A DNA stretch of 64,000 nt from Alphaproteobacteria bacterium (GTDB lineage Bacteria; Pseudomonadota; Alphaproteobacteria; RF32; CAG-239), in assembly GCA_045221335.1 (NCBI GenBank), contig JBGUWS010000019.1, forward strand, positions 77,421 through 141,420, given 5' to 3'. Below, in pieces: positions 3,355 to 34,431 of the stretch. Each line of letters begins with the position of its first letter. Position 1 is the stretch's first letter. The translations under genes were made by a program, and so were the position numbers. Below the pieces are notes generated by a model that was given only the letters and a program-made list of their open reading frames with translations, was not told where the DNA came from and did not search any database.

Positions 3355-4296
3355 ATGAAGTTTTTAATAATAATGTTACTAAGTCTTACCAATGTGGCAG
3401 ATGTTTTGGCCGATGGTATGATAAAAATGATTAATTCAGAGATGTATGGCTTTAGTCAACCAGTGTATACAAAAGATGAGTATAAGGGAATCTCTTTTAA
3501 TATTAATGCAATCGCAAAGGAAGATGATTTTCCTTTGTCCTCTAGCGAACAAGGGTCAATATATGATAAGATTTTCAACGATCTGGCACAGAGATATGGA
3601 ATTTTAATCTCACTTAAATATTATCCCAAAAACTATATGCAAGCAGTGCAAAGTTTTGAAAGAGGCGAAAATGACGAAGCAATGGCTTTGTTTGGGGTTT
3701 ATTATAAAGAAGTCCCGTATTCAAACAACCAATATGTTTATCCGGCTTTCTTTAATAATGATATACACGTAATTTTTACTTCGAAAAGCAATATTCGCGT
3801 AGAAAATAAATCAGACTTAAAAAATTACAGGGGAATACATGTAACAAAAGATGAATTGCCAAATAATGTTAATCAAGAGTTATCCGTATTAGGAGTGAAG
3901 GAAGTTGAAGATTTCCCAGAAGCATACGAAGAGCTTTTAACAGGTAAGGCAGATTATCTGGTGGCAAGTTATTACAGAAGCATAATAGAGGCTTATAAGT
4001 TAGGAGTAAGAAATTATATTATATACAGTATTAATCCTATATGGAAGATTCCAATGTTTATTCGTGTTACACCTAGAATGGCAAAACACCCGAAAATGGA
4101 AATATTGCGCAAATATTTAAGAAGTAGCCAATATCAAAAGATCAGAGATGATGCTTTTGAAGAATTGATTGAAATCTATAAAGAAAGTACAAAAGGTGTT
4201 ATCCCTCCGACATACATAAATGAAGAAGAACCAACGGAAAATATTAATGAAGATTCCGTAAATAATAACAACGAGATAGAAAAACTTGAAAAATAA
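3355..4296 (+). CDS. Periplasmic substrate-binding protein (family 3-like, amino acid/polar ligand)
   Basis: Signal-like N-terminus; PBP2-type segments (YPAFF, DLKNYRG, LLTGKADYLV). No cognate ABC permease is adjacent. Confidence 0.6.
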   Translation: MKFLIIMLLSLTNVADVLADGMIKMINSEMYGFSQPVYTKDEYKGISFNINAIAKEDDFPLSSSEQGSIYDKIFNDLAQRYGILISLKYYPKNYMQAVQSFERGENDEAMALFGVYYKEVPYSNNQYVYPAFFNNDIHVIFTSKSNIRVENKSDLKNYRGIHVTKDELPNNVNQELSVLGVKEVEDFPEAYEELLTGKADYLVASYYRSIIEAYKLGVRNYIIYSINPIWKIPMFIRVTPRMAKHPKMEILRKYLRSSQYQKIRDDAFEELIEIYKESTKGVIPPTYINEEEPTENINEDSVNNNNEIEKLEK

Positions 4297-4338: not shown

Positions 4339-5007
4339 ATGGTTTTATTGGTTCATCATAGTGTATCTCCTCAGTCGCGCAAAATAAGATTAATAATGGC
4401 TGAGAAGAAGATGCTATTTGTCTTAAAAGAAGAGGAGCCTTGGAATATTTCTCCAGAAATAAGGAAAATTAACCCTTCTGGTGAGCTACCTGTTCTTGTT
4501 TTTGATGGTAATGTTATCTCGGGAAATTACGCAATCACTGAATATCTAGAGGAAAGCAATCCACAATACAAGCTTTTGCCTATAGAAGATCCAAAAGAGC
4601 GGGCAGAGGTTAGAAGAATTGTAGAGTGGTTTGATGTGAAATTTTATAATGAAGTATACAAATATATTGTTTTCGAAAAAATAATAAAGAGATTTCAGTT
4701 AAAAATGGCTCCAAATTCTAAAATTTTGAAAGCAGGACTGAATAATCTCAAATTTCATATGGAATATATAGACTATTTAGCAGATAAAAATAATTATATG
4801 GCAGGAAAAACTTTAAGCTTGGCGGACTTGACGGTCGCTGCACACCTATCGATTATTGATTATCTGGGAGATATACCTTGGTCGGAATATAAAAATGCAA
4901 AGCTATGGTACGCCAAAATTAAATCCAGACCGAGCTTTAAAGATATTCTAAAGGATAATATTCGAGGGATATATCCTTCGGCAAATTATGCAAATTTGGA
5001 TTTTTGA
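4339..5007 (+). CDS. fzlA: Glutathione S-transferase-fold protein, FtsZ-binding FzlA-like
   Basis: GST fold (SRKIRL..AEK, NPSGELPVL, SLADL); alphaproteobacterial FzlA signatures RAEVRRIVEWFD, DYLGDIPW, WYAKIKSRPSF and C-terminal YANLDF. Confidence 0.75.
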   Translation: MVLLVHHSVSPQSRKIRLIMAEKKMLFVLKEEEPWNISPEIRKINPSGELPVLVFDGNVISGNYAITEYLEESNPQYKLLPIEDPKERAEVRRIVEWFDVKFYNEVYKYIVFEKIIKRFQLKMAPNSKILKAGLNNLKFHMEYIDYLADKNNYMAGKTLSLADLTVAAHLSIIDYLGDIPWSEYKNAKLWYAKIKSRPSFKDILKDNIRGIYPSANYANLDF

Positions 5008-5009
5008 CC

Positions 5010-5462
5010 ATGAAAAAGATTTTAATCGCAATAACAATGTTTTTAGCCTCTTGTCACAGCGGTCCAAAGGGGCAGCTGGTTTTTCATTGGGATCGATATA
5101 ATACAGGAGGGATAAAATTTGCAAGAGACCATTCTGAATGCATGAGAAAAGCAGAAGCTTTTAAGTTTATACCAAGTTTCAGAAGTTGGTTTTATACAGA
5201 AGAACAGCGCTACAATACTGTTGTAAAGTGGCATAAAGAACATGGAATATGGGCAAGCTTTGTTCCTTATCCTGGTGCCATGCCAATAATGGTTAATTCT
5301 GTTCGAGATGATACAGATGTGAGCCCTAAAAAATACCAAAGGTGTATGTTGAAAAAGGGCTACGTTAATCGTACAATAAATGTGCCTGAAGCAAGTAATT
5401 TATTCATTTATAAACCACAAAGTGTGAATCAGGACGTTCCTCTGGATAGTACATATCCGTAA
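5010..5462 (+). CDS. Hypothetical lipoprotein
   Basis: MKKILIAITMFLASC lipobox; ATG at 5010 directly after the fzlA stop. Confidence 0.6.
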   Translation: MKKILIAITMFLASCHSGPKGQLVFHWDRYNTGGIKFARDHSECMRKAEAFKFIPSFRSWFYTEEQRYNTVVKWHKEHGIWASFVPYPGAMPIMVNSVRDDTDVSPKKYQRCMLKKGYVNRTINVPEASNLFIYKPQSVNQDVPLDSTYP

Positions 5463-5464
5463 AT

Positions 5465-8400
5465 TTAATTAAAAAAGTTATATCCGCCACCCGTGGCTTT
5501 ATAAAAAGCGACAATATTCTGCAAGATCTCAGAATTACTTTCAATAAGCTGATTTTGTGATGCTAGTAGGTTTTGTTCTGCTTGAGATACGTCTGTGAAA
5601 TCAACCAGTCCATTTTTGTATTTTTCATAGGTTAGTTTCATAATATTTTGCATTTTTACAAAAGAGTTTTTTTGATAGTAATTTTTTTTATATGCTTGTT
5701 CTACGAAAAATATTGTGTTTTTTACATCTGTTAAGGCCGTCAACAAAGCTTCGTTATAGTTGAGAATATACTCATCTTTCAGGTGCTTTTGCATTTCCAC
5801 ATTATTAGTTAATTGTTCCCAATGCCATATAGGTGTCATAATACCGGGGGTATAACCATATAACTGATTTTTTGTGTCAAAAAGACCTTGCCCTTTTGGC
5901 GCTAGATAACCAAAAGCAGCACTTAGACTAAGTGATGGATAAAGATTTGTGATAGCTTGATTTAATGAAGCATTTTGAGAAAGAACCATAGCTTCTGCGA
6001 TTTTAACATCTGGCCTTGATTGAATGACAGAAAGGGGGAGGTTATGCAAAGATTTAACGCTGTATTTAAACGTTGAAGATGTTATATTTTTGCGAGGATT
6101 ATCTAAATTAATAGGTAAAGAAGATGGCGTTGTTCCTAAAAGAGTGGCTATTGCATTTTTATATTTTTCTATTTGAGTTAAAATTATTGGTACAGATGTC
6201 TTTGTTGTTTCAATAGTATATTCTGCTTGATTAAGGGATAAATCATCCGCTATACCCGCCAAATTTTTATCTTTAATTGTTTGAAAAATTTTTTGTTGTA
6301 ATTGGATGTTTTTTTGAGCAATAAATAGTTTTTGCTGAGCCTCTCTTAATAAAATGTAATCCTTGATAATTTCAGCAGTAAACGAATTTTTTAAATCAGA
6401 AAGAGAATAAACAGCCTCATCCATAAGAGCTCTATATTGGTTGCGGACATACTTTTCTCTTCCCCATATATCTATTTCCCAAGAAGCATCAAATCCAAGT
6501 TTAAACACATTTGTGTTTTCATAGATATTTGAAGCATTATTTGATTTATTGTAATTATATTGGCCGGATAAATCAAACATTGGCAAAAAAGTAACTGAAT
6601 TTATATTTAGATTGTATCTGGACTGTAGCAAACGTTCATTTGCCTGTTTTATGGATAAATTGTCTTTTAATCCGTGCTGTAATAGTGTATTTAAATCATT
6701 ATCTTGAAAAACGGTGTACCAATCTGGCATTATTTTTGTGTCAGATTGCTTTAGTAGTAGGTTCTTTTGTATTTCTGTGTCTTCCAATTTTGGCAAAATA
6801 ACTTCATCACTACCAACATGACAAGAAGCTAAAAAAATAACCAAAAAAACAATAATACCTCTATGATAAAGCCTACGATTACTTTTTTTGGTATACGGTG
6901 TTTTTAAAGTGGAAAAACGCTCTTTAATTGTTTCGAACAGTGCAAAAAAAGCAGGAACAAAAATAACACCAACAAAGGTGGCGCATATCATTCCAAAAAA
7001 CACGGTTACCCCAATGGAAATTTGGGAATTTGCTCCGGGACCGGAAGCTACGACCATTGGAAAAACGCCCAGAATAAAAGTCATTGCTGTCATCAAAACA
7101 GCGCGAAACCTTTCTTCAGCTCCTTTTTTTGAAGATTCAAGAATGCTAAAGCCTTGTTCTCTATAATTTTTTGTGAACTCAACAATTAAAATAGCATTTT
7201 TAGCCGCTAATCCGATAAGGAGCACAATTCCCAATTGTGCGTAAATACTTAATGGAAGTTTATACAAATGTAACCCCAAAAATGCGCCTAATATAGCAAA
7301 AACAGTCGAGAACATTACAGAAAAAGCCAGCATCCAACTTTCATATTGTGCGACCAAAAACAAATAACAAAACACAACAGCAAGAGAAATTAAAAAACCC
7401 ACCAATCCACGGGTTTCCGCCTCTTGCAAAGACAGTCCTGTCCAAACAATATCAAACCCATGTGGTAAAGTTTGTTTTGCCAGTTGTTCAACAGAATCCA
7501 TGGCTTGTCCACTACTGGCACTTTCTGGAATTTGAAGTGTAATGGGGGCTGCTGTATATAAATTATACCGGTAAATGATGGTCGGTGAAATCTGGGTAGA
7601 AATATCTGTAAAACTATCAATTTTTATTAAATTATTTGAAACTGATTTTACATACAAATTTTTTATATTTTCTAAGCTTTTTCTATAATCAAAATCGGCC
7701 TGTAATATAACACGATTAATTTGACCATTTAGGGTAATATTATTAATATATGTGGCACCAAAATTATTTTGCAGTGTTGAAAATATATCTGCAATAGAAA
7801 CACCAGAAGATAACAGTTTTTCTCTGTTTATATCAAGATAAACATGCGGAGTATCAGAAGTAAAAGTGCTAAACGCAAAAGAAACATCATGAAGACCATT
7901 AAGATTTTGCAGATATTGTTTCAAAACTGAATATAAATATTGAGGGCTATAAGCTGTGTTTTGAGCAAATAACTCAAGAGACAGCCCATTACTTTGCCCG
8001 ATTCCTGGTATAGCAGGGGGTGCAAAAAAATTAAGTTGCACATTTTTTAAATTAGAGAAATTTTGTATGAGATCCTCGGTGATGTTATTAATTGATAATG
8101 AAGGTAGCTGCCTTTCTTTCCAATCTTTTAACCCGATAACACCCAAAGCAACGTTTTCACCACCGCCGCCTAATAAACTATATCCGGCAACACTTATAAA
8201 ATATTGAACACCAGGTAACTCGAGTATTTTGCTATTTATTTTGTTTAAAATATTATTTGTTTGATTTATGCTTGAGGTACTATCAAGCTGAACATTAGCA
8301 AATATGATGCCCTGATCTTCCTCTGGCAAAAATGATGTGGCTGTGAATTTAAAATAAAGACCGATGATAGTAATGGCAACTAAAAAAGCAAACACTGTAT

Positions 8401-10012
8401 AAAGCAAATTTTTAGCAAAAAAACCGACGATTCTAATGTAAAATTTTTTAATAAGATCCAATCCATTGTTAAACCAGACAAAAAGTTTAAAGGACGTTTG
8501 AAGAGAAGATCCTTTATTGAGAAAAACAGAGCACAGTGCAGGGCTGAGTGTAAGAGCATTAAAAGCAGAAAAAACAACAGCAGAAGCGATAGCAACAGCA
8601 AATTGTTGATATATACGCCCAGTAATTCCAGCCATCAAACCAACAGGAACAAAAATCGCCAATAAAACGCATGTTGTTGCGACAATTGCACTGCTTATTT
8701 GCTGCATAGCCTCAACGGAAGCGTTATAAGAATCAAGATTTTCGTGTACCATCAGATATTGTGCGCGTTCAACCACAACAATGGCATCATCAACAACCAG
8801 ACCAATAACTAAAATCATAGCAAAGAGTGTTAAAATATTAATATCAAAATCGAGAAGATATATAACAACAAATGTTGCAATCAAAGAAACAGGTATTGTA
8901 ATTAAAGGAATGAGAGTTGTTTTTATTTTCTGCAAAAATAAAAAAGTGACAAGAATAACTAAACCAAAAGTTATAAATAAGGTATCTATAATTGCCTTTA
9001 TAGATGCGCGAACAAAATTTGTTGAATCGTATGCGATATCAATTTGCATATCATCTGGAAAAGATTTTGAAAGTTGTAAAATTTTTTGTTTGACATCATC
9101 CATTGTTTGTAAAGCATTTGTGTTTGGTGTTTGATTAAGTGCAATAATAACTGCCGGAGAATCATTATATTTGGAGCTTATATTATAAGAATCTCTCCCC
9201 AACTCAATATGAGCAACATCTTTTAGATAAACAATGCCTCCATTATCATCGGAAGATATAATAATATTTGAAAAATCTTCGACACTATTTAACAATCCCT
9301 TTGCGGTTAAATGTAAGACGAGGTTAGTGTCAGAACTACTTGGAGAGGAACCGATGCTTCCTAAGGCGGCTTGAATATTTTGTGATTTTACAGCGGAGAC
9401 AATATCCTCGCTATTTAATCCCAAAGATGATATTTTTTCTGCATCCAGCCATATGCGCATGCTATATTGAGGACCAAAAATTTGAACATCTCCCACGCCA
9501 TATAATCGGGATAAAGGATTTTTAATATTTGTATAGGCAAAATTACTCAAATATAGGTCATTATAGGTGTTTTTGGGAGATCTTAGGGCAATTAAAGCGA
9601 GAATATCAGCATTTTCGCTAGAAACATCTATACCGTTTTGAACAACTTCTTCTGGTAGTTCGCTATTAACCTGTTGTAAGCGATTTTGAATTTTTACTTG
9701 GGCAATATCCGGATCAGTACCGATGTTGAAGGTAACTGTCAGAACATAAGAACCATTATCGTCGGATGTTGATGACATATAGAGCATATTTTCTATACCA
9801 TTCATTTGATTTTCAATAGGAACCGCAACCGTTTCTGTTAAAACGTTTGCATTTGCACCCAAATAACTTGTTTTAACATTAACTTGCGGTGGAGTAATGT
9901 TTGGAAATTGTGAAACAGGAAGAGACTTTATGGCCAACAACCCTAAAATGACCATAATAACCGAAATAACTACGGCAAAGCGTGGTCTGTCAATAAAAAA
10001 CTTAGAAAACAT
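5465..10012 (-). CDS. HAE1-type RND efflux permease fused to a NodT/OprM-type outer-membrane factor
   Basis: About the first 1030 aa are AcrB-like ([47 protein letters not shown]). An internal lipobox FLASC (Cys1064) follows, then OEP repeats ([25 protein letters not shown]). Confidence 0.9.
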
Positions 10013-11148
10013 TATTTGCCTCTACTTTTTACATTAAAGCTGATATTTGTTGTTTTGTTTAAAGAAGATGTGTCGTCCAAAATAAGCATATCACCAGACA
10101 AGAACGTATTTTTAATGATGTATTGATTTCCTTTTTCTGCTAAAATTTTAATTGGAACGTTTAGAACATGATTTTTTCTTGCAATATTCAGAAAATAACC
10201 GGAGGATTCCATGTTTATGTAATTTTTATCAATAAGAACAGCGTTTTTAAAAGTATGATAGGCTTCAATAGTCACAAAGGCATTAGGTAGAAGTTCTTTG
10301 TTATGGTTTTGGAAATAAGCGTAAACAGCTAAGGAATTTGTATTTTTATTTACCTTATTATCGGTATATTCTATTTTACCTGGGTATTTAAAAGTTTTTC
10401 CATTTGCCAGTACAAGTTTTATAACACTGTCCTTAAACGTCGGTTCTTCATTAAAATTCAAATATTCAACATCTGAAATAGAAAAAACAACACGGACAGG
10501 ATCTATTTGCACAAGATCAAGTAAAAAAGGTGAGCTTGGAGAAACATAATCACCGGGGCTGAGGTCAAAATTTCCAATCAGCCCAGAGAAAGAGGCTTTG
10601 ATTTTGGTATAATCATAATTAATTTTAGCAAAGTCCCTGTTTGCTTCTGCACTTTTTAATGCTGCCTGTGCTTGTAGATAATCACTCTTAGCATTAGCTT
10701 GTTCAATTTCTGAAAAAGCTTTGTTTCCAGATTTTATAACACGATTATAGTAATTTTCACTATAATTAAGAGCAGCCTTAGCCTTATCAACAAGCGCTTC
10801 TTCTGTTTTTAACTTTGTCTCATATTCTTTAGGGTCTATAGTAATCAACAAATCCCCTTCATCAACCATCTCTCCGGGTTTAACAACAACATCTTTAATA
10901 TAACCGCTAACATAAGGAACAATTTGGACATGATTAATTGCTTCAACATGACCGATATATTTGTTTTTTGTTGTGACATCTTCTGCCACAATTGGAGAGG
11001 TATTAAGGGTTATTGTATCAATTAAATTTTTTGTTTTAGAGTTTCTTTTCTGCATATAATAAAACAAAGAACACCCTAGAACAAAACAAAAAAAACAGAA
11101 ATAAAACATATATAACAGATAAGATTTATGTTTACTTGCTTTAGCCAT
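10012..11148 (-). CDS. RND periplasmic adaptor (membrane fusion protein)
   Basis: N-terminal TM anchor, lipoyl-like segment ([20 protein letters not shown]), coiled-coil hairpin, [20 protein letters not shown]. Its stop overlaps the permease start. Confidence 0.92.
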
Positions 11149-11212
11149 TATCAACCCTTTGCTTACAATTAATACAAAGAATAGATAATAAGGAAATAAA
11201 CCAATTCAACCC

Positions 11213-33063: not shown

Positions 33064-34431
33064 ATGATAAGGCAAAGTTTGGCAATAATGCTATCTGTAA
33101 CGCTTTTAACAACTTTTTCTGCACAAGCCGAGACATTGGAAAAAGCTATGGAGAGAGCCTATGAGTATAGTCCGACACTAAAAGCATCGCGTGCAGGATC
33201 TCAGGCTGTAAACGAAAATGTGGCTTTGGCAAAATCTGGATATCGTCCGACACTATCAGTGGATGGAGGTTATTCTGATACAAAGATTAACACAAACTCA
33301 CATTTACCTATAAAACCGGTAGACGGATATAATCGCGCATTAGCAGCAACAGTATCCCAGCCTGTGTTTAGAGGATTTAAAACCCTTAACTCTGTGAAAT
33401 CGGCAAAAAATTACGCCAAAGCATCTGAGGCAGCTTTAATGGCGACAGAGCAAAATGTCTTGCTTCAAGCAGCTATTGCTTATCTGGATGTTCTGCAAGA
33501 TGAAGCAATTCTCAAATTGCAAAAGAACAATGAAAAGCTATTGAAAAAAGAATTAGATGAAACAAAAGAGCGTTTTGATGTAGGTGAGGTCACCACGACT
33601 GATTTATCGCAGGCTAGAGCAAGTTATGCTTCTGCACAATCTCAAAGGATATCAGCAGAAGGAAACCTTGAGGCCTCTAGAGCTGTTTATAAACAAGTTA
33701 TCGGTGTGGAACCAAAGAATGTGTCAGACCCAAGTAACATAGAAAAAATGTTTCCCAAAAGTCTGCAAGAAGCAATAGATTACGCTAGACAGCATAGTTA
33801 CATACTCGAGGCGGCACGATACAATTTAAAAGCAAAAAAATATGACGTCAGTACAAATAAAGGGGACTTACTACCATCTGTTAATGCATACGCTCAAGCA
33901 GGGCGCATTAAAACACAAAATTACATGTATGATAAGAACCCGACAAGTGATGAAGTGGAATTAGGTGTTAATTTCAATATGCCGATATATAATGCAGGTG
34001 CTAGCCGTGCTAAGATTCGCCAAAGCAAATACTATAGATGGCAAGCTCAAGAAGATTTGCTTAACGTTGAAGATGCTCTTAAAGCAGATATTACCAGTGC
34101 TTGGGAATATTTAAATGCCAATAAAGCTCGAATAACATCAGTTAAAGCACAAATTAAGGCTTATCAGGTTGCTCTAAATGGTGTAAGGGAAGAAGAATCT
34201 CTTGGCAACAGAACTGTTCTTGACGTGCTTAATCAATATCAATATCTTTTGAATTCAGAGGTAGAAGAGGTGACAGTTCATCATGATTACTACGTATCTG
34301 GATTATCATTACTACAGGCAATGGGAAAGCTAACAGCTAAAGATCTGAATTTAAATGTTGATTTATATAATACAAGTGCTAAATATGAGAAGACAAGTGG
34401 AAAATGGCTTTCCACTACAATAGATAAATAG
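33064..34431 (+). CDS. tolC: TolC-family outer membrane channel
   Basis: Signal peptide, two OEP repeats (AKSGYRPT; RFDVGEVTTTD; LGNRTVLDVLN). Confidence 0.9.
   Translation: MIRQSLAIMLSVTLLTTFSAQAETLEKAMERAYEYSPTLKASRAGSQAVNENVALAKSGYRPTLSVDGGYSDTKINTNSHLPIKPVDGYNRALAATVSQPVFRGFKTLNSVKSAKNYAKASEAALMATEQNVLLQAAIAYLDVLQDEAILKLQKNNEKLLKKELDETKERFDVGEVTTTDLSQARASYASAQSQRISAEGNLEASRAVYKQVIGVEPKNVSDPSNIEKMFPKSLQEAIDYARQHSYILEAARYNLKAKKYDVSTNKGDLLPSVNAYAQAGRIKTQNYMYDKNPTSDEVELGVNFNMPIYNAGASRAKIRQSKYYRWQAQEDLLNVEDALKADITSAWEYLNANKARITSVKAQIKAYQVALNGVREEESLGNRTVLDVLNQYQYLLNSEVEEVTVHHDYYVSGLSLLQAMGKLTAKDLNLNVDLYNTSAKYEKTSGKWLSTTIDK

Follow-up and report, generated by a model that had tools for sequence, protein, structure and literature searches.

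We present here an analysis of a fused efflux-pump gene from an Alphaproteobacteria bacterium (GTDB lineage Bacteria; Pseudomonadota; Alphaproteobacteria; RF32; CAG-239). The gene lies in a stretch of 64,000 nucleotides, positions 77,421 to 141,420 of the forward strand of contig JBGUWS010000019.1 (GenBank assembly GCA_045221335.1), which as a whole is called the window below; all coordinates are those of the window unless a contig is named. A single open reading frame (ORF) of 1515 amino acids (aa) plus stop, located at 5465..10012 on the minus strand and free of internal stop codons, joins a resistance-nodulation-division (RND) permease to a NodT-type outer-membrane factor (OMF) through a linker that carries an internal type II lipoprotein signal. 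From comparison with relatives and with fused proteins of other phyla, the product is probably a precursor that signal peptidase II (LspA) cuts at Cys1064. The window gene represents a fusion caught young within an otherwise unfused genus.

Fused gene and its domains

Residues 1-1031 (6920..10012, minus strand) form an RND permease domain of the HAE1 family, recognized by Pfam, NCBIfam and hydropathy. Pfam ACR_tran matches residues 2-1026 with an E value of 1e-291 and covers model positions 1-1020 of 1021. NCBIfam TIGR00915 (HAE1 RND) scores 1033 bits over residues 2-1034, above its cut-off of 940, as expected of an HAE1 member. Hydropathy finds the 12 canonical segments within residues 6-1030, with gaps at 24-335 and 546-866. 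The proton-relay residues D408, D409, K938, R968 and T975 are present, the last two within the motif RFRAVLMT, and their columns are invariant or nearly so in both alignments. Matched by motif, we take these residues to be D407, D408, K940, R971 and T978 of Escherichia coli AcrB.

The mature NodT-type channel extends from C1064 to N1515 (452 aa; 5468..6823, minus strand) and contains two OEP repeats, as identified by Pfam, NCBIfam and alignment with solved channels. Pfam OEP matches the channel half twice, up to residue 1508, and NCBIfam TIGR01845 (NodT OMF) scores 241 bits over residues 1096-1510 against a cut-off of 210. The mature sequence was aligned end to end with the solved channels OprN (E value, 1e-34), CusC (6e-33), OprM (2e-31) and MtrE, with residues 11-449 of 452 corresponding to CusC 13-442. 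Because the alignments with OprM, CusC and OprN run end to end, Cys1064 occupies the position of the lipidated N-terminal Cys of the solved channels. The pump half and the channel half are both complete.

Internal lipoprotein signal

The linker spans F1026 to C1064 and is followed by HVGSDE, with His at position +2; the Cys codon is TGT at 6821-6823. Its first part is the cytoplasmic basic tail R1032-R1051 (6860..6919, minus strand), the old C-terminal tail of the pump, which now forms the n-region of the internal signal. The tail is followed by the h-region G1052-S1063 (6824..6859, minus strand), 12 hydrophobic residues that appear in hydropathy as a 13th membrane segment and form the signal-peptide core. 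The lipobox L1061-A-S-C1064 (6821..6832, minus strand) fits the PROSITE-type lipobox core, and the predicted LspA cut lies between S1063 and C1064. The linker therefore reads as a type II signal, [LVI][ASTVI][GAS]C after an uncharged core after basic residues. Hydropathy places the 13th segment at residues 1048-1064 and finds zero segments in the channel half. The signal peptide has the same length as those of the unfused orthologues.

In place of the N-terminal signal and own start codon of a NodT lipoprotein, the signal here is internal and the start codon is absent; the gene form of this NodT homologue is non-standard. As for an independent channel start, neither ATG nor GTG occurs in the linker, and its single TTG would give M-VIFLASC. 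The basic tail has a net charge of +5 over its last 14 aa, compared with a mean of +0.9 (standard deviation, 2.1) for 117 unfused orthologue tails. Adaptation of the tail after fusion was considered and dropped, the charge being high but within the spread of unfused tails.

A preliminary description of this DNA, made from the sequence without database searches, had given this anatomy without error. The 1515-aa ORF it claimed is present in the assembly as one open frame, and the part from Cys1064 on has the 452 aa it gave for the channel. Its account of a complete AcrB-like permease joined to a NodT/OprM-like channel agrees with scores above the curated cut-offs for both family models. Cys1064 at codon 6821-6823, the LAS-C lipobox and the basic n-region are exactly as it described them. 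It had further stated that no ATG precedes the signal, and there is no Met between residues 1027 and 1064; its suggestion that the signal acts as a 13th transmembrane segment matches the segment found after the 12 canonical RND ones.

Fused proteins in other bacteria

The preliminary description had also remarked that fusions of RND permeases to outer-membrane channels exist elsewhere. This is right, and a conserved fused family was found. A search with the channel half returned a further four fused proteins, all of which carry a lipobox in their linkers, and one of the four (P0003), used as the query, returned 302 fused relatives. Named sources of the P0003 family are Kiritimatiellota, including the isolate Tichowtungia aerotolerans (complete genome, CP047593.1), and Desulfobacter postgatei, Desulfobacter curvatus and Desulfobacter latus; cultured isolates are thus included. 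RefSeq labels the fused proteins only as "efflux RND transporter permease subunit."

An alignment was made of 124 fused proteins, 110 of which are full-length members of the P0003 family. The Cys of the C1064 column is invariant (124/124), the residue at -1 is G in 120 and S in 4, and 119 match the lipobox core pattern. An uncharged run of 12-23 residues is preceded in every protein by 12 residues with a net charge of +1 to +5. At no linker site is a Met or other start position conserved. Within the 110 full-length family members, identity in the channel half is as low as 45%, and the P0003-type fused RND-OMF family is old and conserved. A fresh fusion keeps the lipobox trivially because the signal sits immediately after the join; the same cannot be said of a lipobox that is invariant throughout an old and diverged fused family.

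The fused gene directly follows an adaptor gene in all four loci examined (L021, L024, L025 and L026), and in Tichowtungia a TetR gene precedes the adaptor. The elements of the Kiritimatiellota/Desulfobacter architecture, namely, an RND permease, a basic tail, a hydrophobic run, the invariant Cys, a NodT channel and an adaptor upstream, are all found in the window. The window channel half is about 30% identical to this fused family and groups, at 100% support, with 12 unfused sequences of its own genus. The two fusions do not share descent of the fused state; their architecture is the same and their origins are independent.

A junction profile was compared with 1.84 billion cluster representatives from a library clustered at 50% identity. 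Among the best 150 profile matches, 58 proteins span the junction, 25 of them at least 1350 aa long, and a lipobox is present in 44 of the 58. These junction-spanning proteins were picked by hidden Markov model, in replacement of a motif-based pick that had caught 15. When the fused/unfused label is mapped on a tree of channel N-halves, it must change at least 16 times, and well-supported branches force at least 7 of these changes; the tree sample is enriched for fused proteins, and the counts are therefore lower bounds for this set and not rates. Fusion arose at least seven times.

In the fused family, the 14 columns before the Cys have a mean identity of 52%, versus 59% for the channel domain, and in the unfused genus the N-terminal signal peptides are 30% identical, versus 64% for the channel. 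The pump may have retained the internal signal as a 13th helix with a function of its own, although this comparison is made across different clades on short, low-complexity segments and is a lead only.

Some fused linkers have no Cys. P0284 carries a TolC-like signal (..ALSAPAFS/EETEE), and P0252, P0256 and P0260 carry A-x-A-like sites before xxGPDY; such linkers suggest internal signals cut by signal peptidase I. P0376, P0344, P0300 and P0276 are high-GC junction-spanning fragments whose Arg/Pro/Ala-rich linkers resemble out-of-frame read-through, and therefore some "fusions" in public collections are artefacts.

Origin of the join

The orthologous locus consists of two frames in all 24 same-genus genomes. 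The junction was read base by base in 11 same-genus loci, in 10 of which the Shine-Dalgarno region is visible. In every one of the 11, the channel ATG overlaps the pump stop by 8 nucleotides (ATGnnTAA), the sequence being ATGCGTAA, ATGTATAA, ATGTTTAA or ATGCATAA. GGAG lies 6-9 nucleotides before the ATG in 9 of the 10 visible junctions and is encoded by the acidic end of the pump (..EENNHA and stop).

In the window, the fusion point is CAT/AGA, H1050-R1051 (6860..6865, minus strand), where relatives have CATGCGTAA, the channel ATG overlapping the pump TAA. The window junction, ..CGTAGGCTTTATCAT-AGAGGTATT.. (ATCAT-AGAGGT), is one base shorter than that of the relatives, and both the ATG and the TAA are absent. 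The His codon CAT of the ..NH end of the pump is kept, and the G that completes the ATG is missing (CATG to CAT). The window AGA (Arg) corresponds to the Arg after Met in the signal peptides of the relatives (MRKSILFF.. versus H-RGIIVF..), with His replacing Met. A degraded Shine-Dalgarno site, CGTAGG (6872..6877, minus strand), is found where relatives have the GAGGAG or AAGGAG of the channel gene. A single-base loss at the ATG or beside it accounts for the missing start, the missing stop and the frame common to both halves. We infer this placement of the missing base as the simplest reading, not as one that is proved. The join has some age: decay has also reached the TAA and the Shine-Dalgarno site, yet 452 codons remain open at 37% GC.

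The run of seven A residues (A7) at about 6885-6891 was rejected as the fusion point; A6 or A8 gives the channel no start, and the pump frame holds to LYH. One extra A in this run, which lies in the pump tail, would give ..TKKK and a stop directly after KKK, with the channel untranslated. The run is a possible slippage site able to switch the channel off.

The 119 nearest RND orthologue clusters (61-75% identity) are all 1034-1085 aa long, that is, unfused. In the tree of channel N-halves, the window sequence falls in a 100%-supported clade with 12 unfused sequences of the genus. The fusion is, as far as these comparisons extend, a singleton in its lineage. Orthologues keeping both the fusion and the lipobox, proposed as a check in the preliminary description, do not occur in the genus, where same-genus genomes keep two genes, as do the 119 nearest clusters. 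One outcome that it had named as speaking against its proposal was separate genes in relatives together with raw reads showing a stop or frameshift in the linker. Half of this outcome holds, in that relatives do have two separate genes.

A second sample of the species was not found, the nearest RND protein in 5.8 billion protein clusters being 75% identical. An exact-pattern scan for the junction, with or without the extra base, gave zero matches in metagenome contigs and genome contigs. In one relative (G015, contig 11, 307398-311162; locus L011), the orthologous channel is split into ORFs of 328 and 216 aa, which could be a frameshift or a pseudogene. The pump tail of that locus is stretched to 53 aa with repeated S-E-E-N-like units.

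Constraint on the two halves

The window channel is 53-59% identical to the unfused channels of the genus, and the RND half is 70-74% identical. For an unfused relative that is equally deep (L020), identity to the genus is 70-74% for the RND protein and 47-54% for the OMF. Sites invariant in other genus members are changed in the window at frequencies of 3.9% (RND) and 7.4% (OMF), a ratio of 1.9; the same measure for L020 gives 5.1% and 13.7%, a ratio of 2.7. The channel half retains every residue that is invariant among the 124 fused proteins. By these measures, the channel half is without relaxed constraint.

Locus and lipoprotein machinery

A gene for a periplasmic adaptor (membrane fusion protein) of 380 aa is located at 10012..11154 on the minus strand (HlyD_D23, E value 1.4e-11; HlyD_3), and it ends on the base with which the fused gene begins. 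With the adaptor directly upstream, the locus is therefore an adaptor-pump-channel operon in which the last two genes are joined.

The genome is 1.61 Mb long in 23 contigs, with a GC content of 37%, and is 100% complete. ORFs of at least 100 aa cover 89.8% of the assembly, and homopolymers reach 13 with a smooth length distribution. Lgt (PF01790, 256 bits), LspA (PF01252, 137 bits), Lnt (TIGR00546, 298 bits) and LolA (PF03548, 91 bits) are present in open frames. An N-terminal lipobox is carried by 89 ORFs in the genome. Lipoprotein machinery is evidently present and in use.

Proposed processing

We propose that a gene pair of the mexB-oprM type became one gene in this lineage through the loss of one base at the start/stop overlap. 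The product has 13 hydrophobic segments, the first 12 being those of the RND permease and the 13th the channel's own lipoprotein signal peptide, now internal. The C terminus of RND proteins is cytoplasmic, as established for AcrB. Given this location and the basic residues before the hydrophobic segment, the 13th segment would insert through Sec with its N terminus in and its C terminus out; the Cys would then lie at the periplasmic face, and the 452-aa channel part would be translocated. Lgt would attach diacylglycerol to Cys1064, and LspA would cut between S1063 and C1064. Lnt, Lol and BAM would carry a normal mature channel lipoprotein to the outer membrane, and the pump would retain the signal peptide as an extra C-terminal helix. 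With the upstream adaptor, the result would be an ordinary tripartite pump whose pump-to-channel ratio is fixed at 1:1.

In the OprM structure, the lipidated Cys is anchored in the outer membrane. An uncut chain should be unable to work because the Cys directly follows an inner-membrane segment but is anchored in the outer membrane in the solved channels. Lipidation by Lgt, a cut by LspA before the Cys and the route through Lnt, Lol and BAM appear to be the only reading that makes the conserved fused family functional. The enzymes are universal and the window signal is native and unaltered; the same outcome would therefore be the default here, if the sequence is right. Cleavage by Lgt and LspA, put forward in the preliminary description, stands as the best-supported mechanism, given the invariant Cys, the small -1 residue and the basic run in the fused family and the enzymes encoded in the genome; conservation of the fusion in its own genus did not hold.

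A wider claim, for which we consider the chances about even, is that signal peptidase II serves as a polyprotein-processing enzyme on polytopic precursors. An internal signal would be accepted without prior adaptation, so that one lost base makes a working one-gene pump, and the window would be a recent instance of a path that has been followed on at least seven occasions.

Alternative explanations

Several points weigh against a processed, functional precursor in this genome. The fusion is seen in one assembly only, and its orthologues are all unfused, so conservation of the fused state cannot be demonstrated in this lineage; conservation in other phyla demonstrates a working layout in those phyla and does not demonstrate one here. 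The basic tail is no significant outlier, about 15% of unfused tails being equally basic when the channel's own Arg is set aside. The lost base is placed by means of lengths and a short conserved ATCAT, the rest of the tail being too diverged to align. The signs of purifying selection average the whole branch, including the time before fusion; the constraint measures would thus speak against long-standing decay and not against a very recent event. The join may be real but a dead end, a young, pseudogene-like fusion. Its channel would be inactivated, through failed translocation or by remaining stuck to the pump, and the pump would use another channel or fail altogether. This is the more serious rival, ahead of an assembly error, because one-off fusions resemble a fresh inactivating mutation. 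A second case occurs neither in the 24 same-genus genomes nor in the 119 orthologue clusters. The genome offers other channels, one of the TolC type (33064..34431) and a further two on contigs 22 and 5, as well as a second RND paralogue on contig 8, and gene decay is plausible in a small host-associated genome. Channel loss does occur in the genus, the orthologous channel of G015 being split. We nevertheless regard a dead end as unlikely. The junction has lost the TAA and the Shine-Dalgarno site over time, while 1356 nucleotides of AT-rich channel stayed open; the family-invariant channel residues are all kept, and the rate relative to the pump half is normal. A 450-aa appendage on the pump would be expected to be lost quickly through a stop codon, and the exact layout has been tolerated and kept in many other lineages.

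An assembly or sequencing error, with C ATG AGA as the true sequence and two ordinary overlapping genes, has a low probability in our estimate, even though the whole frame difference amounts to one missing base and artefactual fusions, such as the out-of-frame high-GC fragments, do occur in public collections. The site, TCAT/AGAG, is no homopolymer, and the assembly is clean in its ORF coverage (89.8%), completeness (100%) and smooth homopolymer lengths. Restoring the G brings back the ATG, but the TAA of 11/11 relatives and the Shine-Dalgarno site are still absent, and the pump frame would extend over 18 codons of the channel gene. If the length of the nearby A7 run is wrong, the channel still gains no start in any frame. 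Separate translation of the channel from an internal non-ATG start, for which no cleavage of a precursor would be needed, could draw on AGAGG at 6858-6862 and the in-frame ATT and TTG codons after it. The ATT codons lie 1 and 4 nucleotides past AGAGG; the TTG, 13 nucleotides past it, would yield M-VIFLASC, with no n-region and a core of 5 residues. The 124 fused proteins have no conserved Met or start position, and ribosomes on the pump frame would in any case continue into the channel and produce the fused chain, all of which makes this explanation highly improbable. Slighter still are the chances of an uncut chain that works as a covalently tethered pump-channel. The open frame is what speaks for it; the Cys comes directly after the 13th segment, leaving no linker that could bridge the periplasm and reach the outer membrane, and the invariant Cys and small -1 residue would be unneeded. 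Processing at Cys1064 thus remains the preferred reading.

Relation to known systems

The window locus has the same three parts in the same order (adaptor, RND, OMF) as tripartite HAE1 pumps of the MexAB-OprM/AcrAB type with a NodT lipoprotein channel, and its unfused orthologues are ordinary MexAB-OprM-type operons. Unlike in MexAB-OprM, the RND protein and the channel of the window share one frame, the channel start is absent and the signal is internal, behind 12 membrane segments. The fused proteins of Kiritimatiellota and Desulfobacter have the same layout with an adaptor directly upstream; their family is old and conserved, whereas the window fusion is a singleton.

FbcH of Bradyrhizobium japonicum, in work of Thony-Meyer and co-workers from 1989-1991, is said to consist of cytochrome b and cytochrome c1 made as one precursor that is split at an internal signal peptide. 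As in FbcH, also from an alphaproteobacterium, the window chain combines a polytopic inner-membrane protein, an internal signal peptide and an exported domain, which would be separated post-translationally. FbcH differs in being cut by signal peptidase I, in having both products in an inner-membrane complex and in lacking lipidation; the window signal is type II, and one product would leave for the outer membrane. Ordinary lipoprotein maturation is matched in the L-A-S-C box, the small -1 residue, the 12-residue core, the basic stretch and the presence of all four genes. Unlike in the known N-terminal lipoprotein substrates, about 1050 residues and 12 membrane helices precede the window signal, and after the cut the "signal peptide" would stay on the pump. 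Neither natural RND-OMF fusions nor internal lipobox processing were described in the literature covered by full-text search, including the accessible part of a 2021 review on tripartite pumps, and no paper on the fused family of Kiritimatiellota and Desulfobacter was found. Every part of the window pump is ordinary. What departs from the standard is that a type II signal lies internally, after a protein of 12 helices, and that one chain would give rise to two proteins bound for two membranes.

If the chain is indeed cut at its buried lipobox, lipoprotein maturation would not be confined to N-terminal signals, and an outer-membrane protein could be delivered from the tail of an inner-membrane protein. 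In bacteria, the process would parallel both the way signal peptidase processes viral polyproteins and the splitting of the cytochrome b-c1 precursor. Pump and channel would be fixed at 1:1, and the pump trimer could gather three channel chains. Hundreds of sequences show the layout, among them those of cultured Desulfobacter and Tichowtungia, and it is open to direct testing. Annotation as "RND permease" hides the fusion, and such genomes therefore appear to be without a channel gene. The window adds the birth of such a fusion, in which two overlapping genes were joined by one lost base with the channel under normal constraint.

Other features of the window and genome

Downstream of the fused gene, 5004..5462 (plus strand) encodes a small lipoprotein with an ordinary N-terminal signal and the same FLASC box (MFLASCHSG). 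This gene also adjoins the pump locus in the relative G024 (L019). A Pfam search gave zero matches for either this ORF or that at 3355..4296 (plus strand).

The genome contains three further channel genes, one in the window and one each on contigs 22 and 5, and a second RND paralogue on contig 8. The channel in the window (33064..34431, plus strand) is an outer-membrane factor of the TolC type, 455 aa long, whose signal is of the signal peptidase I type (..TTFSAQA/ETLEK); it is a possible alternative channel for the RND pumps of the genome. On contig 9 of genome G000, outside the window, about 22 paralogous lipoprotein genes lie in tandem at about 39.5-63.3 kb; each encodes about 360 aa, and the products all begin with MKK[WF]L[LA]SLCMVLALVACK[ED]EK.

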